Of a stretch of DNA of 64,000 bases, positions 11,908 to 32,513 are shown one piece after another. The DNA is from Escherichia phage vB_Eco_slurp01. Location: the sequence record LT603033. One strand, written 5' to 3'. The notes under the pieces were generated by a model, which had not been told where the DNA came from, did not search any database, and saw only the letters and a list, made by a program, of their open reading frames with translations. Each line of letters opens with the position of its first letter. Position 1 is the stretch's first letter. The position numbers and the translations under genes were made by a program.

Positions 11908-11922
11908 TTAATAGAGAATACT

Positions 11923-12674: not shown

Positions 12675-12885
12675 ATTCAATTACCCCTTGAGGCTCCAGC
12701 AAAAAGTTGGTTAGTACTCCATCCTAAATCTCGATCCTAAAAATTTTGGAGTACCTATGAAATAAAAGTTGGATCTTCGAAAGTTGAAATTTACGTTGGG
12801 ACGTTTATGATTTGTGGGATATAATGATGTTTGTAGTCGGGTAGTTCTCAAGAATATCAGTACTGAATAATGAAAGAAAGCTATT

Positions 12886-12913
12886 GACATTATGATTCAG
12901 TACTGTATAATGT
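12886..12913 (+). promoter_or_regulatory. Sigma70-like promoter in non-coding hub
   Basis: TTGACA N16 TATAAT; no convincing ORF downstream. Confidence 0.5.
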
Positions 12914-13102
12914 TCTACATAGCTTCAAGGGGTGATGAGTTGCTGCGAACAATTCATTTACTCTACCTCCTGTCGTGAGACAGTACAGAAAAGATAGTTC
13001 CTCCTGTGGTGGTACATCTTTTTGAACCTCATATGAAAATCGTAATAACAGTACTGATATTAACAGAATGGTGTCAGTACTGATTTTAATCTAAAGCATT
13101 AT

Positions 13103-13122
13103 ACCACCAGCTTGTGCTGGTG
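13103..13122. other. Palindromic hairpin made of two inverted Chi octamers (CCACCAGC-TTGT-GCTGGTGG)
   Basis: Read directly; perfect 8-bp stem. Confidence 0.6.
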
Positions 13123-13238
13123 GATTCCCTCTAACAGTATTCAGTACTACATGATGGTCTTCATCCTCCTAGGGTAACATAGTGAGGGCTATGATGGCAG
13201 TACTGAATACTCCCTTTCAAAAGATAGATCTATGGTAT

Positions 13239-13440
13239 AGTACTGACGGATTTTGGGTGTAGTTACCCTGGATGGATTTTGGGCGTAGATATGTCTAGCC
13301 CTCCAGAAGTCTGGAAGTAAAGATGGCTATCCATCTAGACGGCTAAACGGCTAGATTTCTGGATGGCTGGATGGCTAGACGTTTGGACGGCTAAACGGCT
13401 AGATGGTTACACGTCTGGAAGTATAGACGGCTAAATCAAA
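13239..13440. repeat. Iteron-like cluster of short direct repeats
   Basis: GACGGCTAAACGGCTAGAT x2, GGATGGCT x3, TCTGGAAGTA x2, ATTTTGGGCGTA x2-3; AT-rich tract follows at 13441-13460. Confidence 0.6.
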
Positions 13441-14060
13441 ATTTTATTTTGTTTTTCCAATAGTTCCCCTACCGCGTGGGGATAGTTTCCCCGCAGTATC
13501 TGGAGTTAGATTTTTCTGAATCTGGAATCATTATCTTATAAACTGGGGGCAATGTCAACGACCTGGACGGATATTTTTAAAAATTTTTTCAGTACTGAAT
13601 TTTGGGCGTAACTATGCACCCGGTGGGCTTGAGTCTTTCTCGACTTGATGGAACTATTATACAGTACTGGAAAAATAAAGCAATACCCTGGATGAAAAAA
13701 GTTTTAATTAATTTGCTTGCCATCCTGGGCCGGACTATGGTACTATAATTCAGTACTGAGAAAGTGCGTTAACCTGCTAGGGTGCGGGAGTGTATCCTTT
13801 TTTTATATCTTGAATTTTGGACGGATCTTCCCACCCCCTGGGGTATCCGCTTTCTCGCGTCTATGTAGTAATTATACGCTTTTTCAGGATCAAGTCAATA
13901 CCTAAAAACAAAATAATTGAAAATAATTTAACGCGTTTAAACGGCCCGTAAAGCCCTGGAATGATTGGAATGGTGCAAATGTATAGCTTGGGTGTATTAA
14001 TGCGTTAGAATGCGTCTGAGGCCGTTTTACGGGGTGTAGTAGTGATTTGGTGGATTGATT

Positions 14061-14215
14061 CAGTACTGAATAATAGTACTCCTATATAGAAAGATAGTTC
14101 CCCTGGATGGTTGCAGTACTGAATAATAGTACTCCTATATAGAAAGATAGTTCCCCTGGATGGTTGCAGTACTGAATAATAGTTCCCCTATATAGAAAGA
14201 AAACTATTTTAAAAG
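14061..14215. repeat. Tandem direct repeat, 53-bp unit x ~3, immediately upstream of first early promoter
   Basis: CAGTACTGAATAATAGTACTCCTATATAGAAAGATAGTTCCCCTGGATGGTTG repeated. Confidence 0.85.
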
Positions 14216-14231
14216 TATTTGTAGAAAGTAC

Positions 14232-14259
14232 TTGCAAACTATGTTTAACGGCGTATAAT
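14232..14259 (+). promoter_or_regulatory. Early promoter, sigma70-like
   Basis: TTGCAA N16 TATAAT. Confidence 0.7.
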
Positions 14260-14272
14260 GTTTTACATCGAG

Positions 14273-14291
14273 AGCGGGAACACTTCCCGCT
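14273..14291 (+). other. Promoter-proximal hairpin (AGCGGGAA-CAC-TTCCCGCT)
   Basis: 8-bp stem immediately downstream of predicted start site; member of the recurrent hairpin class. Confidence 0.6.
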
Positions 14292-14314
14292 ACATATTAC
14301 GAGAGATTAAAACG

Positions 14315-14677
14315 ATGGCGACTCAAATCACTAAAATTATTGCTAACCTGGTTAACTTTCGCGACGAGATGAAAGATCTTCCGGCAGAAACGGTAAAAAT
14401 TCACATTGCAGCTTATCGGGAACTTATTGCAATGTTACCTCTTAAGCGTGAACAATACGCCGCTACCGTGATGCTTGATGCGATGATCCATAAGATGATC
14501 GCCAGTGATTTAACGATGGTTTATCAGTATATGGGCGAAAATTTCGCGGTGTATAGTAAACCAGTACCAGGAATGGAAAGTACAGAAGTATTACACGGTT
14601 TAAATTTAAAACAAGATGCATGGGATAATATGCCTCGTTTCCTGGTATGGGCTGACAGTGGCAAAATTTACGAATAA
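14315..14677 (+). CDS. Hypothetical early protein (120 aa)
   Basis: ORF 14258..14677 trimmed: upstream ATG lies inside the -10 element; GAGAGA RBS before MATQITK. Confidence 0.7.
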   Translation: MATQITKIIANLVNFRDEMKDLPAETVKIHIAAYRELIAMLPLKREQYAATVMLDAMIHKMIASDLTMVYQYMGENFAVYSKPVPGMESTEVLHGLNLKQDAWDNMPRFLVWADSGKIYE

Positions 14678-14691
14678 GTTTAATAAAGTAC

Positions 14692-14719
14692 TTGCAAACT
14701 ATGTTTAATGGCGTATAAT
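14692..14719 (+). promoter_or_regulatory. Early promoter
   Basis: TTGCAA N16 TATAAT; hairpin GTGGGGAA-TAG-TTCCCCAC at 14732-14750. Confidence 0.7.
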
Positions 14720-14770
14720 GTTTTACATCAGGTGGGGAATAGTTCCCCACTATATAAGAGGATTAAAAAA

Positions 14771-15010
14771 ATGGCTAAATCAAAAATGTTCTTAGGTCAC
14801 AAAAACAAAACTCATTGGAATGTAAGCCTTTGGATTAATAACGATGAATCATTATACCGGTTGGCCCTGGACTTTATTGCCGCCAATACTAATCGCAATG
14901 ATGCGGCCCGTCATATGATGTTATTTTTAGAACAGACTGGACAAGATAAAACACCGGACGGATTCAAATATAGCACTACTGCGATCCGTGCGGCAATGGT
15001 TGGAATGTAA
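14771..15010 (+). CDS. Hypothetical early protein (79 aa)
   Basis: ORF 14708..15010 trimmed to ATG after AAGAGGA RBS. Confidence 0.7.
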   Translation: MAKSKMFLGHKNKTHWNVSLWINNDESLYRLALDFIAANTNRNDAARHMMLFLEQTGQDKTPDGFKYSTTAIRAAMVGM

Positions 15011-15032
15011 TAGAATAGAATTTATTTAAAGT

Positions 15033-15061
15033 ACTATTGCACGGGGATAGTACTTTATAAT
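15033..15061 (+). promoter_or_regulatory. Degenerate early promoter (TATAAT present, -35 region shortened)
   Basis: Aligns with the promoter at 26483-26511 but has a deletion in the spacer. Confidence 0.4.
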
Positions 15062-15098
15062 AGTGTTTTATTCATACACCAACGATAAGGGCAACAGC

Positions 15099-15365
15099 AT
15101 GAATATTAAGTATTTTGCGACGCGTGAACAAGCTCGGATCGCCGCACGCCAGGACGGGGCAACGTTTAAAGATATGGGCGTACAATCGGAACGTGGTAAA
15201 CGTTGGGCCATTGTAAAGCGTAGTACCGCCAGATCATTACAGTACTGGTTAGCGGCCTTAAAAAGACCCGATAGTGTATCGCGACGAGTGGTAGAAATAA
15301 AGCTCGACCGAAAGGGCAACCGCGTGACCGTGTACCGTACTAAAAAGATTGCAGTACTTGAATAA
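15099..15365 (+). CDS. Hypothetical early protein (88 aa); paralog of 26556..26951
   Basis: Trimmed ORF; shared KYFATREQARIAAR...FKDMG...RKGNRVTVY. Confidence 0.7.
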   Translation: MNIKYFATREQARIAARQDGATFKDMGVQSERGKRWAIVKRSTARSLQYWLAALKRPDSVSRRVVEIKLDRKGNRVTVYRTKKIAVLE

Positions 15366-15373
15366 AAAGTACT

Positions 15374-15400
15374 TGCAAACTATGTTTAAAGGCGTATAAT
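15374..15400 (+). promoter_or_regulatory. Early promoter
   Basis: TTGCAA N15 TATAAT; hairpin GCGGGAA-CTC-TTCCCGC at 15415-15431. Confidence 0.7.
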
Positions 15401-15452
15401 GTTTTACATCGAGAGCGGGAACTCTTCCCGCCTATAACCTGGAGTAATAAAA

Positions 15453-15683
15453 ATGACTAATATGTATATGACTGAAGTTAAAACCGTAAAAGATACTACC
15501 ACGAATAAAACTACTTACTTACAGCGGATCTGTGGTGTATGGCAACGTATCAGCAAATCAAAGTACTTTAAATTAACATCATATGCAAACCGTTCGGATT
15601 CATTCAGTACTGAAATAAAAGGTAATAAAGTACACCAATACGGCACTTATTATTATTATAGCCTGGACGCGATTGCAGTATAA
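15453..15683 (+). CDS. Hypothetical early protein (76 aa)
   Basis: ORF track; GGAG RBS. Confidence 0.65.
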   Translation: MTNMYMTEVKTVKDTTTNKTTYLQRICGVWQRISKSKYFKLTSYANRSDSFSTEIKGNKVHQYGTYYYYSLDAIAV

Positions 15684-15713
15684 GCAGTTTACAAATCTTT
15701 ACAATTGCCGGTA

Positions 15714-15742
15714 TTGACTTATTTTGTCAGTACTGGCATAAT
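15714..15742 (+). promoter_or_regulatory. Promoter driving a non-coding stretch
   Basis: TTGACT N17 CATAAT; no ORF over 25 aa follows. Confidence 0.5.
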
Positions 15743-15744
15743 GT

Positions 15745-15925
15745 ATTCATTGGCAGATAAGCCGTAGCCCATAGGGTGCGGGAGTGTATCTATAGAAAAA
15801 GTAGTTTATTACAGTTACAATTGTGCACCCGGTGGGTTAGCTGTTGTCATGGGGTATATTATGCCAGTACTGGATAGTGCTGTCAATACCTTTTTACTAT
15901 TCAGTACTGAAAACTATTTTTAAAA
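15745..15925 (+). ncRNA. Candidate small non-coding RNA
   Basis: Promoter-driven, no ORF; contains inverted copies of the CCCAYNGGGTGC motif that could pair. Confidence 0.3.
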
Positions 15926-15930
15926 AGTAC

Positions 15931-15958
15931 TTGCAAACTATGTTTAAAGGCGTATAAT
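15931..15958 (+). promoter_or_regulatory. Early promoter (upstream member of a tandem pair)
   Basis: TTGCAA N16 TATAAT. Confidence 0.7.
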
Positions 15959-15965
15959 GTTTTAC

Positions 15966-16040
15966 ATCAGGACGGGGAACGAAATAAGTAACTCCCCATT
16001 AAGTAGCCCAGGAGTAAGGCACACGAAAAACTCCCCTGAT
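15966..16040 (+). other. Conserved ~75-nt structured leader element (copy 1 of 3)
   Basis: ATCAGG...CCTGAT closing helix plus internal GGGGA/TCCCC stem-loop; near-identical copy at 25361-25433, related copy at 18275-18385. Confidence 0.5.
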
Positions 16041-16047
16041 AAAATAG

Positions 16048-16076
16048 TTTGAAAATTGTTTTTAAAAGCGTATAAT
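16048..16076 (+). promoter_or_regulatory. Second promoter of tandem pair
   Basis: TTTGAA N17 TATAAT. Confidence 0.5.
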
Positions 16077-16108
16077 ACTTACATCAACTACTGAATGAGG
16101 GTTACAAA

Positions 16109-16720
16109 ATGAAAACTATCACTACTACTACTTTCGTTATGGATTTTTCTGAATTGAACGCAGAACAAAAAACGTCAGCTATCGAACTGGTTCGGGAACG
16201 TGAAAAAAACTCAAACGACAATTATTTTTCTGAAAGTGAAATTGAATACTATAAAGAAACAGTACTACCGGAATATGGCATTAATGACGCTGAAATACAA
16301 TTCAGTGGTTTTTGGTCCCAGGGTGACGGTGCATCAATCAGTACTGACCACGTTGACGCAGTGAAGTTTTTACGCAAGGTAAGAGCATTAACTAAGTATC
16401 GCTCAATCCGTCACCTGCTGAATGAAGATGATTTGGCGATGAGTGTAAAGCGTTCTCACTCTCACTACTCGCATGAGAACACTGTAAGCGGGTACATTGA
16501 ATCGGCTTACACTGATTTAACCGCAAAACAAGAAACGTTAGTTAATGAGCTTGAGGAACTACTCACTGAAACTATTCGTGAATTGTCACGCAAGTTGTAC
16601 CGTGATTTAGAGAATGCATATGAGGATCAATTCACTACTGAAAACATCGTAGCACTGATTGAGGGTAACGAGTATCAATTCAATGTTATTGATGGCGTAG
16701 TAGAATCAATCGAATATTAA
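16109..16720 (+). CDS. Hypothetical acidic protein (203 aa)
   Basis: ORF track; GAGGG RBS. Confidence 0.75.
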   Translation: MKTITTTTFVMDFSELNAEQKTSAIELVREREKNSNDNYFSESEIEYYKETVLPEYGINDAEIQFSGFWSQGDGASISTDHVDAVKFLRKVRALTKYRSIRHLLNEDDLAMSVKRSHSHYSHENTVSGYIESAYTDLTAKQETLVNELEELLTETIRELSRKLYRDLENAYEDQFTTENIVALIEGNEYQFNVIDGVVESIEY

Positions 16721-16732
16721 TTCAAAAAGTAC

Positions 16733-16760
16733 TGGACACTAAGCAATAAAGGCGTATAAT
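16733..16760 (+). promoter_or_regulatory. Early promoter
   Basis: TGGACA N16 TATAAT; hairpin AGCGGGAA-TAG-TTCCCGCT at 16774-16792. Confidence 0.6.
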
Positions 16761-16812
16761 ACTTTATATCGAGAGCGGGAATAGTTCCCGCTACTAATGA
16801 GGAATACTACAA

Positions 16813-16977
16813 ATGAATACTTTTACCTTCGCTCAATTGAACGCCCTGGATGTATTGTCTGATGCTTTGCGGGATGCAACTGAAAGCGGTTTATTTGACA
16901 ATGTTGACATTCACCCTGATGTAATTAATAATTTTTGTGATGCTATCGCAGAAGTACTGGAAGATCTAAAAAAATAA
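16813..16977 (+). CDS. Hypothetical small protein (54 aa, below ORF-track cutoff)
   Basis: Own translation MNTFTFAQLNALDVLSDALRDATESGLFDN...; GAGGAA RBS; promoter upstream. Confidence 0.5.
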   Translation: MNTFTFAQLNALDVLSDALRDATESGLFDNVDIHPDVINNFCDAIAEVLEDLKK

Positions 16978-16987
16978 TAGAAAGTAC

Positions 16988-17015
16988 TTGCAATTAGTTT
17001 TTAGTACTGTATAAT
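16988..17015 (+). promoter_or_regulatory. Early promoter
   Basis: TTGCAA N16 TATAAT; hairpin 17028-17047. Confidence 0.7.
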
Positions 17016-17065
17016 AGTTTACATAGAGGGGAGAAATGGTTCTCCCTGGTAATGAGGAAAATAAA

Positions 17066-17287
17066 ATGGCTAATATCACTACTCTTTCTCAACTGGAAGC
17101 ACTGGTTAAATCTATGCGGGAACATGCAGACAATATCGGCGTAAAAGATCCAGCCGTTTGCTTCTGCGACGAAATGAATGATGATACACTGGTAATAGCA
17201 GAAGTACAAGATATTTCTAACTATTCATCGCGTTACACTGGCGGCGTAGCAAATAAAGGTGACTTCTGTTTATACCTTACCAAATAA
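17066..17287 (+). CDS. Hypothetical early protein (73 aa)
   Basis: ORF 17036..17287 trimmed to MANITTLS after GAGGAAAA RBS. Confidence 0.65.
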   Translation: MANITTLSQLEALVKSMREHADNIGVKDPAVCFCDEMNDDTLVIAEVQDISNYSSRYTGGVANKGDFCLYLTK

Positions 17288-17292
17288 CAACG

Positions 17293-17322
17293 CGGGGAGA
17301 TAATAACTCCCCGTTACTTTTT
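17293..17322 (+). terminator. Intrinsic terminator
   Basis: CGGGGAG-ATAATAA-CTCCCCG then TTACTTTTTC. Confidence 0.7.
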
Positions 17323-17455
17323 CAGTACTGAATCATTTAATAGACGGATCTCGGCACCCTGTGGGTTAGTGACTGTATCGTCTTTATGTAGTAATTATGC
17401 CAGTACTGGATGCACTTGTCAACAACTATTTTTCAAATACTTTTTATTAAAATAC

Positions 17456-17483
17456 TTGCTAATAGTTTTTAAACGCGTATAAT
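17456..17483 (+). promoter_or_regulatory. Early promoter
   Basis: TTGCTA N16 TATAAT; hairpin GGGGAG-CGG-TTCCCC at 17494-17508. Confidence 0.6.
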
Positions 17484-17529
17484 GTTTTGCATAGGGGAGC
17501 GGTTCCCCTGGTAACTAAGGAATAAGAAA

Positions 17530-17766
17530 ATGCTTGAACAAATCAAATCAACGTCTGCTAATGTAACGGGAACGGTATCACACTTTATTGGTGATGAATC
17601 GCGGGGCGTTCCCTATTGTGCTGTACATGTAAACACTGAGGGTAACTACTGGTTTACGGTTTACGGATCATATTCATTTGGACGGCCAGGGCATCAAAAA
17701 ATTCTGGATAAAGTACAACCAACGGGTAAAAATATCACTGCCGAAATGTTTTATAAAAAATCATAA
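17530..17766 (+). CDS. Hypothetical early protein (78 aa)
   Basis: ORF track; TAAGGAATAAG RBS. Confidence 0.7.
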   Translation: MLEQIKSTSANVTGTVSHFIGDESRGVPYCAVHVNTEGNYWFTVYGSYSFGRPGHQKILDKVQPTGKNITAEMFYKKS

Positions 17767-17771
17767 AGTAC

Positions 17772-17799
17772 TTGATAATAGTTTTTAGTACTGTACAAT
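17772..17799 (+). promoter_or_regulatory. Early promoter
   Basis: TTGATA N16 TACAAT; hairpin GGGGGAG-CGG-TTCCCCC at 17814-17830. Confidence 0.6.
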
Positions 17800-17850
17800 A
17801 TTTTACATCGCACGGGGGAGCGGTTCCCCCTGGTAACTAAGGATAATCAA

Positions 17851-18150
17851 ATGAAAATTGCAATCATCGCCCTGGCTTTATCTGTTTCCTCTTTCGCTGT
17901 TAACGCGTCGTTAGATGTACCTAGTGAAAAATTCATTCAGTGTACTGTTGCGATGACAGATGAAAGTACTGGCGAGATTGTTTTAAAGGATTTAGAGATC
18001 CAGTCAGAAGCATTTAAAAGCGGCCCGTTCCATGAAGAAGACGAAAAAGGTAGCACGACAATTTATTACGATGTAAGTACTAAGCGTGGATCGGTCACGG
18101 TTATGGATACTGAGAAAGTAACGCACACCGGAGTAATTAACTGTTTATAA
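17851..18150 (+). CDS. Putative secreted/periplasmic small protein (99 aa)
   Basis: N-terminus MKIAIIALALSVSSFAVNA|S has signal-peptide character (basic n-region, hydrophobic core, AxA site). Confidence 0.7.
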   Translation: MKIAIIALALSVSSFAVNASLDVPSEKFIQCTVAMTDESTGEIVLKDLEIQSEAFKSGPFHEEDEKGSTTIYYDVSTKRGSVTVMDTEKVTHTGVINCL

Positions 18151-18167
18151 TATAGTACTGAATCACT

Positions 18168-18196
18168 AGCCCACCTTAAACAGTGGGCTTTTTTGT
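18168..18196 (+). terminator. Intrinsic terminator
   Basis: AGCCCAC-CTTAAACA-GTGGGCT + TTTTTT; identical copy at 18894. Confidence 0.8.
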
Positions 18197-18238
18197 TTTG
18201 TAGTACTGCATACTTTAAAAATAGTTTTAAAAAAGTAG

Positions 18239-18266
18239 TTGACATTACCACAAAAAGGCGTAGAAT
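18239..18266 (+). promoter_or_regulatory. Early promoter with long structured leader
   Basis: TTGACA N16 TAGAAT; ~110-nt leader 18275-18385 related to 15966 element. Confidence 0.65.
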
Positions 18267-18389
18267 GTATTACATCAAGACGGGGAGCACTAAGTAGACC
18301 GCCAGTAAGTCGAACGAAAAACTGGACACGTCGATAAAACTTTGATACACTAATAAACGTAAACTAAACTTTAATTGAGGATTTATAAA

Positions 18390-18872
18390 ATGGCTAATGT
18401 AAAATCATTCCTGAAAGCACTGATTTCAAACGATACTGTTATTGCTGCTGAATTGCTGGCTGAACTGGATAACGATACAATGAAAGCGGTACGCAACAAT
18501 TTTAACATTGCGTACAGTGAAGCTAAAGAACTGCAAGCCAAAAAGGTAGCAGAACTGGAAGAACAGAAAAAAGCCCGTGAAGCAGAACTACAAGCAACAA
18601 TTGAAAGTATTCAGGCGGCAGTGTCTGGATTGGATCTGGAAGTGGTTGTAGAAATGGCACATAAAGCCCTGGCGGTTAAGTACGGTGAAGATAAGCCGGA
18701 ATCTAAACCTAAAAAATGGATTCAAGAACGTGTTACTGTAGTACTTGATAACGGTGAAGAACATTTGATTCCTGTACGCGGTAACTGCATTGCGGTAGTA
18801 CTGGACGCTATCAAAGAAAGCGGTATGACTCGCGAGGAATGGATCGAAGCTCATCGCAAAGTTGAAGCATAA
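18390..18872 (+). CDS. Hypothetical protein with predicted coiled-coil N-terminal half (160 aa)
   Basis: ORF 18375..18872 trimmed to MANVKSF after GAGGA RBS. Confidence 0.7.
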   Translation: MANVKSFLKALISNDTVIAAELLAELDNDTMKAVRNNFNIAYSEAKELQAKKVAELEEQKKAREAELQATIESIQAAVSGLDLEVVVEMAHKALAVKYGEDKPESKPKKWIQERVTVVLDNGEEHLIPVRGNCIAVVLDAIKESGMTREEWIEAHRKVEA

Positions 18873-18893
18873 CAATTAAAGTACTGAATCAAT

Positions 18894-18921
18894 AGCCCAC
18901 CTTAAACAGTGGGCTTTTTTG
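18894..18921 (+). terminator. Intrinsic terminator (duplicate of 18168)
   Basis: Same hairpin + T-run. Confidence 0.8.
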
Positions 18922-19074
18922 TGTCTATAGTATTCCAGTCCACTAGCACCGCCTAGAATCGATTCTAACGCATTAAACTGATTATCTGATACATCGCCCT
19001 AGCTGGTGGCGTTAAGGTCGTTAGAAAGCGATTGAGAGTGTTTAAAGTATTTTGCAAAAAGTAATAAAAAGTAC

Positions 19075-19102
19075 TTGCATGATTAAGAGATTAGCGTATA
19101 AT
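19075..19102 (+). promoter_or_regulatory. Early promoter
   Basis: TTGCAT N16 TATAAT; hairpin ~19115-19132. Confidence 0.65.
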
Positions 19103-19156
19103 GTTTTACATCGAAAGGGGAAACGGTTCTCCTTCCAAATCAAAGGAATCAAAACA

Positions 19157-19384
19157 ATGGCTATTATCATTACTCGCGTATCTGGTACTACTGGCAATTC
19201 TTCTACTGTTGCAGTCATTACTAACAAGGCAGGTGCGGAATTGCAAAATGCAATGAATACCTGGGCCGTTAATGAGTTCGGTCAGTGGGCAAGTGTAGCA
19301 TACATTGAAACCTATCAAGTGCCGACCATTAGTTTAACGGATCTTGGTGTGGAACGTATCCTTTGCTTGGATGAATTAAATTAA
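19157..19384 (+). CDS. Hypothetical early protein (75 aa)
   Basis: ORF 19052..19384 trimmed to MAIIITRV after AAAGGAAT RBS. Confidence 0.65.
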   Translation: MAIIITRVSGTTGNSSTVAVITNKAGAELQNAMNTWAVNEFGQWASVAYIETYQVPTISLTDLGVERILCLDELN

Positions 19385-19392
19385 AAAAGTAC

Positions 19393-19420
19393 TTGCAAAG
19401 TAAATCGAATAAAGTATAAT
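19393..19420 (+). promoter_or_regulatory. Early promoter
   Basis: TTGCAA N16 TATAAT; hairpin GGGGAGAA-ATGA-TTCTCCCC at 19433-19452. Confidence 0.7.
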
Positions 19421-19469
19421 ACATTACATCAAGGGGAGAAATGATTCTCCCCACTACAAGGAAACTAAT

Positions 19470-19613
19470 ATGAAAACTTGTCAATGTGGTAAAAAATCTA
19501 TTACTGGTTTAAAGCGGGGCGTTGCTCTTTGCCAGTACCATTATAATTTACAAGTATGGGGTAAAGAATGGGCCGACCAGGTGGAAGCAATTAAGAAAGC
19601 AAAAAGTAAGTAA
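19470..19613 (+). CDS. Small Cys/His-containing protein (47 aa), possible zinc ribbon
   Basis: Own translation MKTCQCGKKSITGLKRGVALCQYHYNLQVWGKEW...; below ORF-track cutoff. Confidence 0.45.
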   Translation: MKTCQCGKKSITGLKRGVALCQYHYNLQVWGKEWADQVEAIKKAKSK

Positions 19614-19632
19614 AAATATTATCACAGTACTA

Positions 19633-19661
19633 TTGACATAGTTTGATAGTACTGGCATAAT
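19633..19661 (+). promoter_or_regulatory. Early promoter (class without downstream hairpin)
   Basis: TTGACA N17 CATAAT. Confidence 0.7.
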
Positions 19662-19702
19662 AGATTTTATCAAGACAACATATTAATTTAAGGAATACTA
19701 AA

Positions 19703-20026
19703 ATGGCTAAAACTATCATTAACACCGTTTCCCTGGCTGCAATCCGTGCAATCAATGTTGACGGTAAACGTTGGACTGATTCATATGGCAATACTTATCA
19801 TTCTTGTCATGTAAGCGTCGAACTGGATAACGGTTTGAATGTTCTGGCGGTTGAATCATTTACTTATGGCTATGAAGATGCATATCAACAAACGGCGTTA
19901 GATCTATTAAAGGAATCAGTAGACGGGCTTAATACTGATGAAACCTCCCTTACTCGTTTGTGCAATGATCTTAATATCCCGTTGCATTGTACTGTACAGA
20001 ATGTTAAACGCAAAAAAGATCTTTAA
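19703..20026 (+). CDS. Hypothetical early protein (107 aa); paralog of 26137..26460
   Basis: ORF track; shared RWTDSxGNTYHSC...FTYGY...VKRKKD. Confidence 0.75.
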   Translation: MAKTIINTVSLAAIRAINVDGKRWTDSYGNTYHSCHVSVELDNGLNVLAVESFTYGYEDAYQQTALDLLKESVDGLNTDETSLTRLCNDLNIPLHCTVQNVKRKKDL

Positions 20027-20106
20027 TTAGCTTTACTTTATGCAGATACTTTGATATAGTGTCTGCATAGGGGAAAGAAATTAAATTAACTTAAGAGGAT
20101 CGTATA

Positions 20107-20376
20107 ATGAAAAATATCAGTACTTTAATCGATGCAGGTACACATGTTCGGCGGTCTATGGTTGCAACCAGTACTACAAAACAAGTAGCAAGCGGTTATC
20201 TTGTATTTGTGCACGATGGTAAACTCCTGGAACGTTCAATCAATTTTGATGTTAAAAACAATTGCCGTTTTATTATCTTTAAGCGTGAACAATATAAAAT
20301 TGATTTGCCAGCGAAGCCCATTAGCGGGGCGTACAACGTGCAATCATTGTTTGAGCGTCAACCATACACCTATTGA
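20107..20376 (+). CDS. Hypothetical protein (89 aa)
   Basis: ORF track; AAGAGGA RBS. Confidence 0.65.
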   Translation: MKNISTLIDAGTHVRRSMVATSTTKQVASGYLVFVHDGKLLERSINFDVKNNCRFIIFKREQYKIDLPAKPISGAYNVQSLFERQPYTY

Positions 20377-20427
20377 TCAAATCATCGTTAGTGGTCGATT
20401 TAGGCCGCTTATATTGGGGATTATACC

Positions 20428-20700
20428 ATGAACGTTAATCAAGTACTAAATGAAGTTGAAAGCATCATTAAACCAATGAAACGTATTGATGCAATGCTAA
20501 CACCGGAAGAATGCCGCCTTTATGAGCGTTACAGCGTCGAACAAGTCCAGGCGATGGCTATGGCTACCCCTGCCGTTAAACAGCCTGAGAATGCGTTACA
20601 GGACGTTACAGGGGATTATATCATTAATCCAGTACTAGGGAAGATTACACCAATCACCGAAGAAGAAAAAGACTACTTAAGCCAGTACTTAAAAGGTTAA
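20428..20700 (+). CDS. Hypothetical protein (90 aa)
   Basis: ORF track. Confidence 0.6.
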   Translation: MNVNQVLNEVESIIKPMKRIDAMLTPEECRLYERYSVEQVQAMAMATPAVKQPENALQDVTGDYIINPVLGKITPITEEEKDYLSQYLKG

Positions 20701-20705
20701 TTAAT

Positions 20706-20915
20706 ATGCTTACTGTACAGGATAAGATCGACATCTTAAAGGTTAATATGTATGTGATTGATGCAGATCCTGAAAAAGTATTTGCATACGATGATTCTAA
20801 TCGTAGTCCTTTTTATTGTAGTCATGTAGTTGGATACGTGCCGTTAGCGTATGTTATCGAAAGAGTGGTTGATTCAGCATACAAACATTTTTTAGAAAAT
20901 AATACTTGCAATTAG
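20706..20915 (+). CDS. Hypothetical protein (69 aa)
   Basis: ORF track; stop lies inside the next promoter. Confidence 0.55.
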   Translation: MLTVQDKIDILKVNMYVIDADPEKVFAYDDSNRSPFYCSHVVGYVPLAYVIERVVDSAYKHFLENNTCN

Positions 20916-20933
20916 TTTTTAGTACTGTATAAT
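20906..20933 (+). promoter_or_regulatory. Early promoter
   Basis: TTGCAA N16 TATAAT; hairpin ~20946-20967. Confidence 0.7.
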
Positions 20934-20984
20934 AGTTTACATGAAGTGGAGAAATAGTTCTCCCCACTAATTAAGGAATATGAA

Positions 20985-21131
20985 ATGAAAGCATCAAAAA
21001 AGAGTACTAATAAGAAAGCACGTTCAACTTTAGATGGGGTATTCCCTTTGCGTTTTGTGGATGAAGTGGTTTCCTACCCGCTGGGGCTTACTCCTGAGAT
21101 GGTAGAAAGTTTACGTAAATCTAAAAAATAA
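20985..21131 (+). CDS. Hypothetical small basic protein (48 aa)
   Basis: Own translation MKASKKSTNKKARSTLDGVFPLRF...; below ORF-track cutoff. Confidence 0.45.
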   Translation: MKASKKSTNKKARSTLDGVFPLRFVDEVVSYPLGLTPEMVESLRKSKK

Positions 21132-21134
21132 TAC

Positions 21135-21162
21135 TTGCAATTAGTTTTTAGTACTGTATAAT
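21135..21162 (+). promoter_or_regulatory. Early promoter
   Basis: TTGCAA N16 TATAAT; hairpin 21175-21194. Confidence 0.7.
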
Positions 21163-21212
21163 AGTTTACATGAAGGGGAGAAATGATTCTCCCCAAGAAC
21201 AGGAGAAATAAA

Positions 21213-21365
21213 ATGAAACAATATAATGCTCGGTTTGATGTTACTATCGGTAACGGTAAAGGTCAATTTTCTTTCAGTACTCGACGCAGTTATACAGAAA
21301 ACTTCCTGCGTAATTGTGCACTGACCGCCGCTCAAATTAAACATTATTTTCAGGCTAAAAAATGA
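21213..21365 (+). CDS. Hypothetical small protein (50 aa)
   Basis: ORF 21183..21365 trimmed to MKQYNARF after AGGAGAAA RBS. Confidence 0.55.
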   Translation: MKQYNARFDVTIGNGKGQFSFSTRRSYTENFLRNCALTAAQIKHYFQAKK

Positions 21366-21451
21366 AATCATTAGCTTATTACAGTTCGGCCCTGGTCGTT
21401 GCATTGATCGCGGCGTTGTTAGTAACCTATCTATTCTTTATGGTGATTTAA
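21362..21451 (+). CDS. Tiny hydrophobic peptide (29 aa), predicted single transmembrane helix
   Basis: Own translation MKSLAYYSSALVVALIAALLVTYLFFMVI; ATGA coupling. Confidence 0.35.
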   Translation: MKSLAYYSSALVVALIAALLVTYLFFMVI

Positions 21452-21589
21452 ATGAATCCTAACGGTATAATTTACAGTACTCCTAAAACGAAAGCAGACA
21501 AGGTAAACGCTAAAAAAGCGAAAGTAAAGGAGTACATCAAGCAAGGCATGACGCGAAAGGCGGCGATTCTAAAAGCTAAAAATAAATGA
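21452..21589 (+). CDS. Small basic protein (45 aa)
   Basis: Own translation MNPNGIIYSTPKTKADKVNAKKAKVKEYIKQGMTRKAAILKAKNK. Confidence 0.4.
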   Translation: MNPNGIIYSTPKTKADKVNAKKAKVKEYIKQGMTRKAAILKAKNK

Positions 21590-21595
21590 AAAAAG

Positions 21596-21720
21596 TGGTT
21601 GACTTCGGTCAGCCATTTTGCTATTATATATTCATTGAGAGATAGCTCACTAGCCCACAGGGTGCAGGAGTGTATCTATTGTATAATGTTTGAGTACTGA
21701 AAACTATTTTTAAAAAAGTA
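21596..21720 (+). repeat. Repeated intergenic module (hairpin overlapping TTGACT-N17-TATTAT promoter + CCCACAGGGTGC motif), copy 1
   Basis: Other copies at 25196-25320, 28463-28600, 30726-30870. Confidence 0.7.
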
Positions 21721-21721
21721 C

Positions 21722-21749
21722 TTGAAAACTATCTCAATTGGCGTATAAT
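21722..21749 (+). promoter_or_regulatory. Early promoter
   Basis: TTGAAA N16 TATAAT; hairpin 21764-21780. Confidence 0.65.
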
Positions 21750-21800
21750 GTTTTACATCGCAAGGGGAAACGGTTTCCCCTGGTAATAAGGAAACGAATC

Positions 21801-22142
21801 ATGACTATCTCAATTGCTCAATCTAACTTTGAAAATGAAATCATCGCCCAGGTACTGCGTTTAAATGATGGTCGGGCCGAAATTAATTACGGTTTCAATT
21901 CAGGCGGTTGTGAAAACTATCAGTACTTTGTAACGGCTGATGGCGGTGTCCTGGGCATCAATACAGTTATTGTAAACATCCAAAAAATTAATTTCAATGA
22001 TCCAGACGATAGCCAGTTTTACATCACTGGCGTAGACGTGAACTATGAGGATGACTCACTAACTGATGATTACACTGGTGAGCGGTTAGAAAGTGCTTAT
22101 GGTGAAGATGATTATCAGTCAGTACCGGAAGATTTCGAATAA
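21801..22142 (+). CDS. Hypothetical early protein (113 aa)
   Basis: ORF 21738..22142 trimmed to MTISIAQ after AAGGAAAC RBS. Confidence 0.7.
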   Translation: MTISIAQSNFENEIIAQVLRLNDGRAEINYGFNSGGCENYQYFVTADGGVLGINTVIVNIQKINFNDPDDSQFYITGVDVNYEDDSLTDDYTGERLESAYGEDDYQSVPEDFE

Positions 22143-22155
22143 TATAAAAAATAGT

Positions 22156-22183
22156 TTGACAATAGATTATAGTACTGTATAAT
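22156..22183 (+). promoter_or_regulatory. Early promoter
   Basis: TTGACA N16 TATAAT; hairpin GGGGAGAA-TAG-TTCTCCCC at 22196-22214. Confidence 0.7.
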
Positions 22184-22234
22184 AGTTTACATCAAGGGGA
22201 GAATAGTTCTCCCCACTAACAGAGAAAAAACAAA

Positions 22235-22447
22235 ATGGCTAATATCCGCACTGTACTGAAAAATGCAAAACAAGTTTTATTTTCTGATCATGATACTTTC
22301 AACAAGGATATTACTGGCGTTCGGAATATCAAAGATGTAAAAAGTGTTATGGGTATCTATTGCAATATGAAACGTGTTGGAACGTTCGGCGACAAAGTAC
22401 TATACCAGGCAGGGGATTACAATTTTACACTGACTATCATTAACTAA
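22235..22447 (+). CDS. Hypothetical early protein (70 aa)
   Basis: ORF track. Confidence 0.7.
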   Translation: MANIRTVLKNAKQVLFSDHDTFNKDITGVRNIKDVKSVMGIYCNMKRVGTFGDKVLYQAGDYNFTLTIIN

Positions 22448-22466
22448 AAATATTATCACAGTACTA

Positions 22467-22495
22467 TTGACATAGTTTGATAGTACTGACATAAT
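22467..22495 (+). promoter_or_regulatory. Early promoter (no-hairpin class)
   Basis: TTGACA N17 CATAAT. Confidence 0.7.
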
Positions 22496-22530
22496 AAGTT
22501 TTATCAACTACACTACTAAGGAATTAAAAA

Positions 22531-22710
22531 ATGGCTATCATCGCAAAAACTGAAATCATCGGCCTGGATTCTATCATCATGACGTTTGAAGATCAAAAAG
22601 GTATGTATGTGGTTTCCTATGGTGATTATGTTCGGGAGTATGAAACGGTAGACGAAGCCTTTGAAAGTTACATTCGCCAGGTGAATAAAGCATACGACGA
22701 CTACCGCTAA
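22531..22710 (+). CDS. Hypothetical small protein (59 aa)
   Basis: Own translation MAIIAKTEIIGLDSIIMTFEDQKG...; AAGGAATT RBS. Confidence 0.5.
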   Translation: MAIIAKTEIIGLDSIIMTFEDQKGMYVVSYGDYVREYETVDEAFESYIRQVNKAYDDYR

Positions 22711-22737
22711 AATATATTACCAGTACTATTAAAGATA

Positions 22738-22765
22738 TTGACAACGTTTGATAGTACTGTATAAT
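22738..22765 (+). promoter_or_regulatory. Early promoter
   Basis: TTGACA N16 TATAAT. Confidence 0.7.
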
Positions 22766-22808
22766 AAGTTTTATCAACAGTAGTTAACTTAACCTAAGAG
22801 AGAAACAA

Positions 22809-22913
22809 AATGATCGCACTGGATTCATTCATCGACGCAGTACTGGCAAAAACTGGCGAGGATCTGACCGCAGAACAATACGCAATGATCGAGCAATGCC
22901 AGCAAGACGGTAA
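22809..22913 (+). CDS. Short ORF (34 aa) with a more protein-like continuation in the +1 frame to 22953; possible frameshifted gene
   Basis: ATG after AAGAGAGA RBS; GGG run at 22859-22861 shifts frame. Confidence 0.3.
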   Translation, partial: NDRTGFIHRRSTGKNWRGSDRRTIRNDRAMPARR

Positions 22914-22959
22914 ATCGGTGAAAGATACTGTTAAGATTATCCGCAAGATGTAAGATTAT

Positions 22960-22990
22960 AGCCCACTGGTTAACGCTGGTGGGCTTTAAT
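22960..22990 (+). terminator. Putative terminator
   Basis: AGCCCAC...GTGGGCT stem then T-rich; stem includes a Chi octamer. Confidence 0.5.
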
Positions 22991-23058
22991 TCATTACCCT
23001 ATACAATGCCAGTACTAAACCGTTTATCTCCTTAGAATGCGTTACAGGACGTTTGACA

Positions 23059-23256
23059 ATGATTAGCATGAAATCAGTACAAAAACAAATAGAAACATTA
23101 TCAAAAATTAAACGTAAACAGTACTCGTTAGAATATACAATCAATGGTAACTATCATCTAATGAAAGAGAATAATTTCATTGTCATTGATGAATCATTGC
23201 AAATCATTAGTATAGTACTGAAAGCATTAATCAATGACAGAAAAAAATTAAAATAA
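23059..23256 (+). CDS. Hypothetical protein (66 aa)
   Basis: ORF track (TTG start at 23053) trimmed to first ATG; no clear promoter. Confidence 0.45.
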   Translation: MISMKSVQKQIETLSKIKRKQYSLEYTINGNYHLMKENNFIVIDESLQIISIVLKALINDRKKLK

Positions 23257-23260
23257 TATA

Positions 23261-23289
23261 TTGACAATATCCTCCAGTACTGGCATAAT
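23261..23289 (+). promoter_or_regulatory. Promoter followed by ~290-bp non-coding leader
   Basis: TTGACA N17 CATAAT. Confidence 0.65.
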
Positions 23290-23587
23290 ACTTACATCAA
23301 GACGAGAACGTCACTAACCCATAGGGTGCACAAATGTAACTGTATAATATTGATCAAAAAATGATCTGATCAATACTTGATCAATTTGCGTAAAGTAGTA
23401 TAATTCTATGCAGTTGGTTAGACGAAAGGTTATGATTAGTAGTGCAAGTGTATAAAAATTTTCATGGTGTATCGTTTCGCACATATGGGGATGAATATGT
23501 GGTATCATGTGGATTGGAAAAAGTAAGAACAAGTAATATTATTGTCGCATTACAGTACTATAGTATTTTTATAATGAGGTTAAAATA
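23290..23587 (+). ncRNA. Candidate non-coding RNA or long leader with clustered TGATCA/GATC
   Basis: No plus-strand ORF; TTGATCAA x3 + GATCTGATCAA within 23340-23395. Confidence 0.3.
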
Positions 23588-23845
23588 ATGGCTGTAGGAT
23601 TCGCGAAAGATGGGGCCGAACAAGACGAGATTAACGCAGTGATTCAGGCCGCCGTTAACCACGCTAGAAAGCAAATTAACGCACAAATAGAATCACTGAT
23701 ACATTGCCTCGACTGCGGCGATATAATCCCTGAGAAACGACGCCAGGCCGTTAAGGGGTGTAAGTACTGCATAACTTGCCAGGAGGATCATGATAGTACT
23801 TTTAAACGTCCCCCGCGTAATTGTTGGCATAGATCTATGAGATAA
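23588..23845 (+). CDS. TraR/DksA-family C4 zinc-finger protein (85 aa)
   Basis: CLDCGDIIPEKRRQAVKGCKYC fits C-x2-C-x3-I-P-x2-R...C-x2-C signature. Confidence 0.6.
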   Translation: MAVGFAKDGAEQDEINAVIQAAVNHARKQINAQIESLIHCLDCGDIIPEKRRQAVKGCKYCITCQEDHDSTFKRPPRNCWHRSMR

Positions 23846-23851
23846 AAAGTA

Positions 23852-23880
23852 TTGACAGTACTATCCAGTAGTGTTATAGT
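23852..23880 (+). promoter_or_regulatory. Early promoter
   Basis: TTGACA N17 TATAGT; hairpin GGGGAA-ACATC-TTCCCC at 23892-23908. Confidence 0.65.
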
Positions 23881-23926
23881 ACTTACATCAAGGGGAAACA
23901 TCTTCCCCTACTAAGAGGAAATGAAA

Positions 23927-24115
23927 ATGGAAAACTTATCAAGTATTTTAGTACAAGATGATTTCGGTAATCCTGGAAGTGCTATCATTGTTCGGGGTAA
24001 TAAAGCAACATTTGTTATTGCTGGTGGACCTGTACAGCGTAGCATTAAAAATAATGCTGTTACCATTAATAATGTACGCTATCGCTTAGATAAAGAATTG
24101 ATTCATAAACTGTAA
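23927..24115 (+). CDS. Hypothetical early protein (62 aa)
   Basis: ORF 23921..24115; second ATG has better RBS spacing. Confidence 0.6.
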   Translation: MENLSSILVQDDFGNPGSAIIVRGNKATFVIAGGPVQRSIKNNAVTINNVRYRLDKELIHKL

Positions 24116-24142
24116 TATTAATTTAATAGAGGATAACAATAA

Positions 24143-24466
24143 ATGTACATTCATACTACTATCACAAAGGAAGTCCGTTGCCAGTTCGAAAGTATTCCGG
24201 GCGTATGTTTCATCACTGGTACGTTTTCCCCTGGTGATCGTGATAATCCAGTACTGTTACAATTACGCCATCCATCATGGGATAAAGCATTTGATCTACC
24301 GTTGAATGAATTCGCAACTACTGCTGAAAAGTACATTAAAAATATTCGCGAGAATGATCGACTATTCATTAATGCTTTTAGTGATTCCGCGTTAAGCGAG
24401 ATCCACGGCGTATTGGTTGCAATCATGGAATCAATGGAGAAAACTAAATTCAAACAAGGTGAATAA
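24143..24466 (+). CDS. Hypothetical protein (107 aa)
   Basis: ORF track; GAGGATAA RBS. Confidence 0.65.
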   Translation: MYIHTTITKEVRCQFESIPGVCFITGTFSPGDRDNPVLLQLRHPSWDKAFDLPLNEFATTAEKYIKNIRENDRLFINAFSDSALSEIHGVLVAIMESMEKTKFKQGE

Positions 24467-24472
24467 AAACTA

Positions 24473-24500
24473 TTGACAAGATAATCTAGTACTGTATAAT
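24473..24500 (+). promoter_or_regulatory. Early promoter
   Basis: TTGACA N16 TATAAT; hairpin 24513-24532. Confidence 0.7.
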
Positions 24501-24549
24501 AAGTTACATGAAGGGGAGAAATGATTCTCCCCACTAAGAGGAAAGAAAA

Positions 24550-24762
24550 ATGCAAGGTCAACTAATCGTTCGTAAATGGTCTGATACTAACGAAAAACCG
24601 TGGGATGTACAATACATCGGACCGGATGGGGTATCACGTTATCAGCCAGGCGTAACGCATAGTACTGAGCAATATGCCGCCGCTCACCGCGAACGCCTGT
24701 TAGAATCCATGAAACAGGGATTCTGTGAAAAATTCATTCAAGATCATTGGCTGAAAGATTAA
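24550..24762 (+). CDS. Hypothetical early protein (70 aa)
   Basis: ORF track; AAGAGGAAAG RBS. Confidence 0.7.
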   Translation: MQGQLIVRKWSDTNEKPWDVQYIGPDGVSRYQPGVTHSTEQYAAAHRERLLESMKQGFCEKFIQDHWLKD

Positions 24763-24779
24763 TAGAAGGAGTACAGCTT

Positions 24780-24872
24780 ATGCAAATGAATCCGATGATT
24801 ATTGTTTTAGCTGTACTTATGATCATTCATGCAATAGTAGAAGTATTAACGCAATCAGGAGTAATAAAATGA
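24780..24872 (+). CDS. Tiny hydrophobic peptide (30 aa), predicted transmembrane
   Basis: Own translation MQMNPMIIVLAVLMIIHAIVEVLTQSGVIK; GAAGGAG RBS. Confidence 0.45.
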   Translation: MQMNPMIIVLAVLMIIHAIVEVLTQSGVIK

Positions 24873-25051
24873 TTCAAGTAGAATTATCAGTACTAAAAGA
24901 TCTGTTTTATCGGATTGGTACTACTGGCGAATATCCGAAGGGTGATAATGCAAAACTTTACGTATCACTCGACTTATGGCAACGCGAACAATTAGCAACG
25001 GCCTGGCGTAAAGGCAAAGCAGATAGCGAGGTGAAAGCATGAAAGAATTCT
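24869..25051 (+). CDS. Hypothetical small protein (60 aa)
   Basis: Own translation MIQVELSVLKDLFYRIGTTGEYPKG...; ATGA overlap. Confidence 0.45.
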
Positions 25052-32092: not shown

Positions 32093-32157
32093 AGAAAAAA
32101 GTCAAGGCGTTTTTAAAATTATGCGTTAAAAAAATGCATAGGTAATCCCTTGACTTT
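32093..32157. repeat. 13-bp perfect inverted repeat AAAAAAGTCAAGG...CCTTGACTTTTTT flanking a ~40-bp spacer
   Basis: Read directly; sits at the boundary between early region and family B array. Confidence 0.6.
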
Positions 32158-32257
32158 TTTGAAATAAAAGGGATTGGACTATGGCAAAATGCGTAGGGGG
32201 CTAAAGGGCGGGTAACCTTAGCGACTTCGATAAAGGGGTATTACGAATAAAATGTTA

Positions 32258-32285
32258 TTGACTTTTTATATGAATCGTATAAAAT
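32258..32285 (+). promoter_or_regulatory. Promoter at head of family B array
   Basis: TTGACT N16 TAAAAT. Confidence 0.5.
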
Positions 32286-32315: not shown

Positions 32316-32513
32316 ATGCGTATTTTAACTAAAGAACAGCACCACGAAAGACTTATCAATAACATGGCTATGATAATGTATAAGTCCCATGACCGTGGTA
32401 TTGCCTATAAGCGTGAATTAATTATGGCACTATTCATTGGAACTAACTTTCAGGAAAGGTATGTCAACGATTGGATTTGGTATTTAATTGAAGATATAAC
32501 GAGTAAACTATGA
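32316..32513 (+). CDS. Small protein, tandem paralog family B (C-terminal LGTNYQ-type motif)
   Basis: ORF 32286..32513 trimmed to MRILTKEQ after AAGGGAG; motif FIGTNFQERYV. Confidence 0.6.
   Translation: MRILTKEQHHERLINNMAMIMYKSHDRGIAYKRELIMALFIGTNFQERYVNDWIWYLIEDITSKL

Follow-up and report, generated by a model that had tools for sequence, protein, structure and literature searches.

Organization of the locus

The DNA considered here, called the window below, is a stretch of 64,000 nucleotides (64 kb) from Escherichia phage vB_Eco_slurp01 (sequence record LT603033), and all positions are counted from its first letter on the strand shown. Escherichia phages vB_EcoM_G17 and Sharanji share 99.8% identity with the region under study, which has matches in about 40 Asteriusvirus jumbo phages (PBECO4, 121Q and others); the source of the window is an Asteriusvirus, that is, a G17/PBECO4-like jumbo coliphage. 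Three parts follow one another in the window: the right end of the unique region, the terminal repeat, and then the left end of the unique region, which holds an array of small paralogues.

The terminal repeat is the early region of the phage and is transcribed by the host polymerase. It carries ten perfect (12/12) promoters of the form TTGACA-16/17-TATAAT, all on the + strand, and promoter-like sites number 110 where 68 are expected, a picture that agrees with the published account of the related phage CBB (PMC5259590). About 50 small genes occupy the repeat. The last of them, which encodes a protein of 69 amino acids, is followed by a non-coding tail with an inverted repeat, and further on lie a promoter and the first gene of the paralogue array (Table 1). 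Neighbouring genes are all on the + strand, and searches of Pfam and PHROGs with the flanking proteins yield no function.

Table 1. Features of the terminal repeat and its right end in the 64-kb window
Feature	Position	Strand	Remarks
60-bp tandem repeat, 3.3 copies	12314..12509	+	outside the terminal repeat; ends 9 nt before the left genome end
Direct terminal repeat, single collapsed copy, 19,700 bp	12519..32218	+	early region, dense in consensus sigma-70 promoters; placed from the ends of vB_Ec-M-J and G17
Last terminal-repeat gene, 69 aa	31857..32066	+	phrog_17833; stop 152 nt before the genome end
AGTACTGA motif copy abutting the inverted repeat	32082..32089	+	over-represented across the window
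Left arm AAAAAAGTCAAGG	32095..32107	+	distal, inverted copy of the CTTGACTTTT box, -118 from the cut
AT-rich 40-nt spacer	32108..32147	+	contains the inner hairpin 32119-32127 / 32133-32141
Right arm CCTTGACTTTTTT	32148..32160	+	proximal box; at a constant -69 from the cut in different genera
Conserved motif GATTGGACTATG, containing CTATG	32172..32183	+	unique in the window
Terminal cut site AAAGGGCGGGTAACCT|TAGCGAC	32203..32225	+	cut 32218|32219; unique in the window; CT|TAGC conserved in other genera
Promoter TTGACT-16-TAAAAT	32258..32285	+	first of the unique region, feeds the small-paralogue array; 10/12 consensus
First paralogue-array gene, 65 aa, RBS AAGGGAG upstream	32316..32513	+	homologue annotated as CDS in vB_Ec-M-J; phrog_4148

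The motif next to the left arm recurs through the whole window. In the form AGTACTGA(T), often as the palindrome TCAGTACTGA, it is strongly over-represented (30107-30139, 22482, 12321-12509, 32082-32089): the 9-mer occurs 27 times where 0.68 is expected, and the 8-mer AGTACTGA occurs 95 times. It often stands just past the -10 element, or flanks the -35 element and fills the spacer of consensus sigma-70 promoters, and may be the operator of an early-promoter regulator. Two sites, 25200 and 30736, carry a hairpin with an embedded -35 element (AAAGGGATTGACTCCGGTCAGTCCCTTT followed by GCTATTATAT), of which 21592 has a variant.

The right end of the genome

An earlier note on this DNA had placed the inverted repeat at a boundary between the early region and an array of "family B" genes. 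That boundary is real, and it is the right edge of a direct terminal repeat of ~20 kb. The record of phage vB_Ec-M-J is annotated with "Direct Terminal Repeats" at 1..21525; its first base maps by BLAST to window position 12519 and its last base to 32218, so that the window carries one collapsed copy of the repeat. The same exact record end, ...GGGTAACCT (...GGGCGGGTAACCT), is found at 32218 in seven genomes deposited by different laboratories (vB_Ec-M-J, G17, CRJP21, E9.1, fEgEco12, BF17 and WPEC3), which are not fully independent witnesses because homology to earlier records, and not measurement, may have determined some of these ends. At the other side, G17 and vB_Ec-M-J have the left end AGTAGGCAGAGG in common, and the left end of G17 also maps to 12519.

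Long terminal repeats in these phages have been recognized in several ways. The ends of fEgEco12 were determined with PhageTerm and checked by restriction digests (PMC13070987), the terminal repeat of Sharanji was set at 20,668 bp from PhageTerm (PMC11895373), and the ~20-kb redundancy of G17 was inferred from read coverage (PMC6563267). The repeat of Klebsiella phage fENko-Kae01, again defined by PhageTerm, measures 19,736 bp. Virion DNA has its physical right end at the boundary 32218|32219. The inverted repeat stops 58 nt short of this end, on its inner side, and the array promoter begins 40 nt outside it. A tail of the same 152 nt between the stop codon of the 69-aa gene and the end is seen in six Asteriusvirus records, and Erwinia phage Hallingskeid, for which the deposited sequence starts precisely at the corresponding cut, has a 152-nt tail as well.

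The left end has repeated elements of its own. The 60-bp tandem repeat just outside it is perfect, with TCAGTACTGA in every unit, and is absent from vB_Ec-M-J, which marks it as variable between strains. From nucleotide 1 of the terminal repeat (12519-12544) a hairpin can be drawn, AGTA-GGCAGA ggaag TCTGCC-gTACT, and fENko-Kae01 has one at its left end too, TATCTTCT ctgtata AGAAGATA (L016, 671-693). A hairpin at nucleotide 1 is nevertheless not a general feature, since it is missing in Serratia phage BF, whose record has the same start, TATCTTCTC. In fENko-Kae01 and Serratia phage BF, too, the hexamer AGTACT is common in the non-coding ends. Further tandem repeats (14061-14200 and 13334-13433; 53 bp x 2.6 copies, and periods of 16-48 bp) lie in the non-coding left part of the repeat, which is ~1.7 kb long.

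The inverted repeat

The earlier note had described a perfect 13-bp inverted repeat around an AT-rich spacer of ~40 bp with ATGCGTT...ATGCAT symmetry, and both descriptions hold. The two arms, AAAAAAGTCAAGG and CCTTGACTTTTTT, are 13 nt each, 100% complementary and separated by 40 nt, and the symmetry in the spacer is an inner 9-bp hairpin in which UUAUGCGUU (32119-32127) pairs with AAUGCAUAG (32133-32141), imperfectly and with two G-U pairs. T-runs said to flank the repeat on its outer sides are present as A6 and T6, but they are the outer parts of the arms themselves and not external flanks. When the arms are regarded as two boxes, their centres lie 53 bp apart, or about five helical turns.

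How unusual is such a repeat? Counting perfect inverted repeats with arms of 13 bp or more and loops no longer than 60 nt, the window has 3, whereas Markov-1 simulations of the same size and composition give 0.165 on average, and 14% of the simulations have at least one. The other long-loop inverted repeats of the window are heterogeneous and form no class with the one at 32095-32160. The right arm CCTTGACTTTTTT, searched with up to 2 mismatches, occurs elsewhere in the window at chance level, and is thus not a repeated motif. The exact 10-mer TTGACTTTTT has just three copies in the 64 kb, and these lie within 170 nt of one another (32096 on the - strand, 32150 and 32258 on the + strand), one in each arm and one in the -35 region of the array promoter. 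The sole match to Rfam, bglG-cis-reg, scores 28.4 bits against a gathering score of 80; with this one sub-threshold match, a known RNA family was rejected.

All of the 15 close relatives examined, which represent 9 haplotypes, retain the repeat. Within this set the arms do not stand out from their surroundings, and the idea that they are better conserved than the spacer or the flanks was discarded: variable columns make up 14% of the alignment before the repeat, 15% of the left arm, 17% of the spacer, 8% of the right arm and 12% of the stretch from the repeat to the cut, which is to say 8-15% in the arms against 12-17% elsewhere. The 9 haplotypes contain three changes in the arms, each of which breaks a base pair, and compensation is found for none of the three. 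The inner hairpin has lost two pairs, again uncompensated, in the lineage of vB_Ec-M-J, fEgEco12, WPEC3 and CMSTMSU.

Other members of the genus depart further. Both arms are replaced by unrelated AT-rich sequence in Turkey5 and JNE01, and EJP2 has no distal box, only a mutated right arm, CCTTAACATTTT. These losses mean that the inverted repeat is dispensable within the genus. At about -71 to -63 from the cut, where a box stands at -69 in other phages, Turkey5 and JNE01 (L012 and L013) have CCTTAGCG, a second copy of the cut site (AACCT|TAGCG). The substitution hints that the box and the cut site are related recognition sequences. The tail of Turkey5 also contains a duplication of 81 bp. On the outer side of the cut, four Salmonella SD phages lose similarity 12-19 nt past it, and Salmonella phage SD-15_S21 (L022, about 590-600) lacks about 75 nt that include the array promoter, a gap that may have arisen by deletion or through faulty assembly at the boundary of the repeat.

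A terminus module shared by several genera

More distant comparisons were anchored on the cut. They drew on the fENko-Kae01 group (fENko-Kae01, 7t3, Munch, SE_PL and PHA46), the Eneladusviruses (Serratia phage BF, the Erwinia pEa_SNUABM phages and Yersinia phage fHe-Yen9-04, here Yen9-04), a CBB-like contig of 378 kb and three contigs of metagenomic jumbo phages, and the counts of boxes refer to 13 lineages from at least four genus-level groups. A search of IMG/VR with the 69-aa protein led to one locus only, and a scan with a DNA pattern gave 7 true loci among 54 matches. A non-coding module is found in Asteriusvirus, the fENko-Kae01/Munch group, Eneladusvirus, the CBB-like contig, Hallingskeid and the three metagenomic phages. 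When the sequences are lined up on the cut, most lineages need no gaps between about -80 and the cut, and common motifs continue to about +25.

Three elements keep their register within this alignment. Of the 13 lineages, 10 have a TTGAC or TTAAC box at -68 to -70, and the right arm of the slurp01 repeat is this proximal box. The pentamer CTATG is at -40 in 12 of the 13 (at -39 in Serratia phage BF), and the cut itself reads CT|TAGC in every one of the 12 lineages with sequence past it. Both GATTGGACTATG and AAAGGGCGGGTAACCTTAGCGAC occur once in the 64-kb window, so that the motifs of the terminus are not a promoter signal that recurs.

Upstream of the proximal box, 10 of the 13 lineages have a second copy, whose arrangement differs from group to group. 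It is direct and at -97 in the Eneladusviruses (-96 in BF), the CBB-like contig and the three metagenomic contigs; it is inverted and at -98 in fENko, at -113 in Hallingskeid and at -118 in the clade of the slurp01 window. Since both the orientation and the distance of the second box vary, independent binding sites fit the data better than one fixed stem. Past the cut, several genera (L023, L028, L032, L033 and L037; window positions 32219-32245) have TAGC-N(12-14)-GGGGTAT(A/T)A in common. The signal is therefore conserved to the left and to the right of the cut, and only its inner side belongs to the terminal repeat. The position of the boxes relative to the end, their conservation and their duplication are direct observations on the aligned genomes.

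Could the repeat be without function? Inverted duplication or gene conversion, acting on the proximal box or on the TTGACTTTTT -35 region of the array promoter, might have created it within the PBECO4-like subclade, where it would have persisted by descent. The 13-bp form is indeed limited to one subclade, whose arms vary no less than other positions and change without compensation; the three identical copies of TTGACTTTTT within 170 nt suggest local copying, and relatives manage without the repeat. A second box, however, is kept in at least three or four arrangements across the genera, which would be unlikely without selection because a given hexamer should turn up by chance, on either strand of about 55 nt, in only a few percent of cases, and the position of the repeat within the 152-nt tail is constant. 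We therefore regard a neutral origin, conceivable for the 13-bp form in particular, as improbable.

Transcription across the genome end

The TTGACT promoter that the earlier note saw downstream of the repeat is confirmed at 32258-32285. It is conserved in the aligned Asteriusvirus sequences, SD-15_S21 being the exception. The repeat had also been proposed as a bidirectional terminator. No genes lie on the - strand nearby and all neighbouring genes run in the + direction, so that termination in both directions is not needed and would have no obvious client. A search for transcriptome data on these phages found none. A one-way terminator of an atypical kind is possible. The repeat would then be a factor-independent terminator, or a hairpin that stabilises the 3' end, for the last early transcription unit (31354-32066), and would stop host RNA polymerase ahead of the cut site and the array promoter.

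Several features are consistent with such a terminator. The repeat begins 29 nt past a stop codon, and a separate promoter lies downstream. In + strand RNA the arms and spacer make a composite hairpin, in which a bridge of 3 bp joins the 13-bp stem on the outside to the 9-bp hairpin within; U6 comes after it, and the A6...U6 frame, the G-C pairs in the stem and the stable sense fold all recall terminators of the A-tract/stem/U-tract type. The predicted fold has -23.6 kcal/mol (z = -5.4), and none of 200 shuffled sequences is as stable; the - strand gives -17.5 kcal/mol (z = -3.2). In 6 of 8 lineages the + strand fold, with more G-U pairs, is stronger than the - strand fold by 3.5-9.4 kcal/mol. 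Composite hairpins with unrelated inner sequences recur in EJP2, fENko, Hallingskeid, Yen9-04 and the metagenomic lineage L033 (z = -2.6 to -6.4), and the 3' half of these hairpins includes or adjoins the conserved box. In EJP2 the change of the box from TTGAC to TTAAC is matched by GUUAcGGG on the opposite side, and in most lineages a (C)UUUU run follows the box.

The geometry and the pattern of change argue the other way. In an intrinsic terminator one expects a stem that is compact and rich in G+C, closed by a loop of only about 3-10 nt, a U-run on the sense strand after the stem and the gene, and an RNA hairpin whose stability exceeds that of shuffled sequence. The U-run (T6 at 32155-32160, after a stop codon that ends at 32066) and the hairpin are there, but 40 nt separate the arms, and the clear terminators of this phage are short GC-rich hairpins. 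Two standard predictors are silent: a terminator pattern scan does not list the element, and in the G17 record ARNOLD calls no terminator at either copy of it, despite calls elsewhere. The arm changes seen in close relatives are all of the pair-breaking kind, and in the vB_Ec-M-J lineage the decay of the inner hairpin extends to the U-run, which has become UUUUAU. Hairpins of other sequence are present in several genera, but JNE01 (z = -0.2) and L032 (z = +0.6) have no significant fold, and a distal box in direct orientation is unable to pair with the proximal box. Yen9-04 has a perfect outer repeat of 15 bp with 44 nt between the arms, but no U-run after the stem. On balance a terminator is a serious rival reading of the repeat, though less probable than the packaging signal considered below. 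A terminator or 3'-end hairpin that keeps polymerase off the cut site could, on the other hand, coexist with a role of the same sequences at the level of DNA.

The arms also resemble promoter elements. The box includes a perfect -35-like hexamer, TTGACT, and readers such as RNA polymerase are therefore conceivable. It has been considered whether the arms themselves are sigma-70 promoters; they are not, as neither arm has a usable -10 element at 16-19 nt on either strand, and only the copy at 32258 is a promoter. The arms might instead be decoy or regulatory sites for host RNA polymerase or for a phage regulator, with outward-facing TTGACT hexamers and A/T tracts that hold polymerase at the end of the repeat or serve as an operator for the array promoter, which lies 100 nt downstream. 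TTGACT agrees with the -35 consensus at 5 of 6 positions, and the array promoter has the identical sequence as its -35 region; AGTACTGA, the likely regulator motif, abuts the left arm. Yet besides the missing -10 elements, the arms lie about 100-160 nt from the array promoter, and the box is in register with the cut rather than with the promoter, which lies at different distances in different lineages. These considerations make a decoy or regulatory site highly improbable.

The earlier note had offered an operator or a cruciform as further options. This suggestion is not far from what we now consider the best reading, namely paired boxes for the binding of protein; the likely client, however, is the formation of the genome end and packaging, not the array promoter.

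A candidate signal for end formation and packaging

The position and conservation described above favour a signal for DNA ends or packaging over an ordinary terminator. Boxes that occur in either orientation in register with a cut resemble terminase recognition sites, and on this likeness the 13-bp repeat is read as a pair of recognition boxes. The best explanation is that the arms are paired protein-recognition boxes of a terminus signal like cosB or pac. We hold this reading tentatively, with a probability of roughly 0.4, on the basis of comparative sequence analysis.

As would be expected of a cos- or pac-type signal, the element is adjacent to an end of the virion DNA (the right arm lies 58 nt from the shared end), and repeated boxes stand at defined distances from the cut in most of the 13 lineages. 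Such signals may also have a site for a host bending protein, or an intrinsic bend, between the boxes. A search for an IHF site between or in the arms gave one IHF-like match with 1 mismatch; such matches occur in the window at 2.9 per kb, and this one does not stand out from chance.

The proposed pathway can be outlined as follows. The arms would be two oppositely oriented copies of a box of roughly 10 bp, CTTGACTTTT, within a non-coding, cis-acting module that extends from about -125 to +27 and straddles the cut at 32218|32219. Recognition and cleavage at this module would produce, out of replicated DNA, the right end of the chromosome with its 20-kb terminal repeat. We infer that the boxes bind protein and serve packaging, the candidate binder being the DNA-recognition subunit of the packaging enzyme or another end-specific protein. 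In the + strand transcript, the hairpin formed by the arms may also halt early transcription before the cut site.

Lambda cosB is the closest model for the packaging signal. It has three sites for TerS (R3, R2 and R1, in the order R3-I1-R2-R1) within about 120 bp of cosN, with R2 inverted, and a bend made by IHF joins R3 and R2 for a TerS dimer; relatives of lambda have either a 'complex' or a 'simple' cosB, and N15 has a single critical site with an accessory inverted copy (PMC4669245). Here, too, short repeated boxes are placed on one side of a cut, at about 50-125 bp, one of them is inverted, and the AT-rich spacer between them may be bendable. The number of boxes varies among relatives of lambda just as the distal box has been lost in some jumbo-phage lineages. 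There are clear differences, however. The jumbo-phage ends are those of a 20-kb direct terminal repeat whereas those of lambda are 12-nt cohesive ends, the conservation in jumbo phages covers both sides of the cut, and the module has neither an IHF site above chance nor any sequence similarity to cosB. Binding of the boxes is, moreover, putative here.

Phage T5 also has a long terminal repeat with early genes that are read by the host polymerase, and the left terminal repeat with its injection stop signal is a second possible model. Repeat Region 3 of T5, near the inner boundary of the repeat, contains inverted repeats with a fixed spacer of about 52 bp, or five turns (bioRxiv 10.1101/866236). 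The T5 region, however, is about 1.2 kb long with many repeats and paired DnaA boxes, while the tail considered here is 152 nt, and the large repeat-rich non-coding region of the Asteriusvirus repeat lies at its outer end (12519 to about 14280). An injection-stop region of the T5 type was rejected, the likeness being one of general arrangement: the DnaA box TTWTNCACA is absent within 2 kb of the inverted repeat, and its frequency in the window is that of chance. Two-step entry of DNA is, to our knowledge, not known for jumbo phages of the Asteriusvirus type.

A third comparison is with the concatemer junction of T7 and its class II pause/termination site, where transcription and end formation likewise meet at the junction of terminal repeat and unique DNA. 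Chung, Nardone and Hinkle reportedly put forward, in 1990, a model of T7 concatemer processing by way of hairpin ends. An element of the T7 junction is described as having activity like that of an E. coli promoter (bioRxiv 10.64898/2026.02.12.705533). T7 has its own polymerase, however, and a repeat of 160 bp, and the likeness is an analogy only.

A bolder version of the packaging reading can be imagined, although we consider it unlikely. The module from -125 to +27 would then be an undescribed, site-specific right-end signal of the RaK2/PBECO4-like jumbo phages with repeats of ~20 kb. In the PBECO4 subclade the inverted boxes would form a structured element, perhaps a DNA loop held by protein or an extruded hairpin, that loads or arrests the packaging motor or helps to duplicate the repeat, and that would also shield the cut from roughly 50 strong early promoters upstream.

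Implications

The inverted repeat itself is probably an element of an ordinary kind, whether recognition boxes or a terminator hairpin, and if it is only a terminator it is nothing out of the ordinary. What it marks is more specific than the earlier note had supposed: the conserved non-coding region at the right end of a jumbo-phage chromosome with terminal repeats of 20 kb. How ends are recognized and cut in phages with very long terminal repeats, such as T5, SPO1 and the RaK2-like jumbo phages, is poorly defined, and the searched papers on RaK2-like jumbo phages go no further than the existence and length of the terminal repeats; none of them describes the cross-genus terminus module. The exact sequence of the right end that several genera share, with TTGAC at -69, CTATG at -40 and the cut at CT|TAGC, offers a target of about 150 bp for a packaging assay. 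With the module as a landmark, the many deposited genomes whose terminal repeats are collapsed, or opened at an arbitrary point, can be given their correct orientation, and the module would also be useful for the engineering of jumbo phages.
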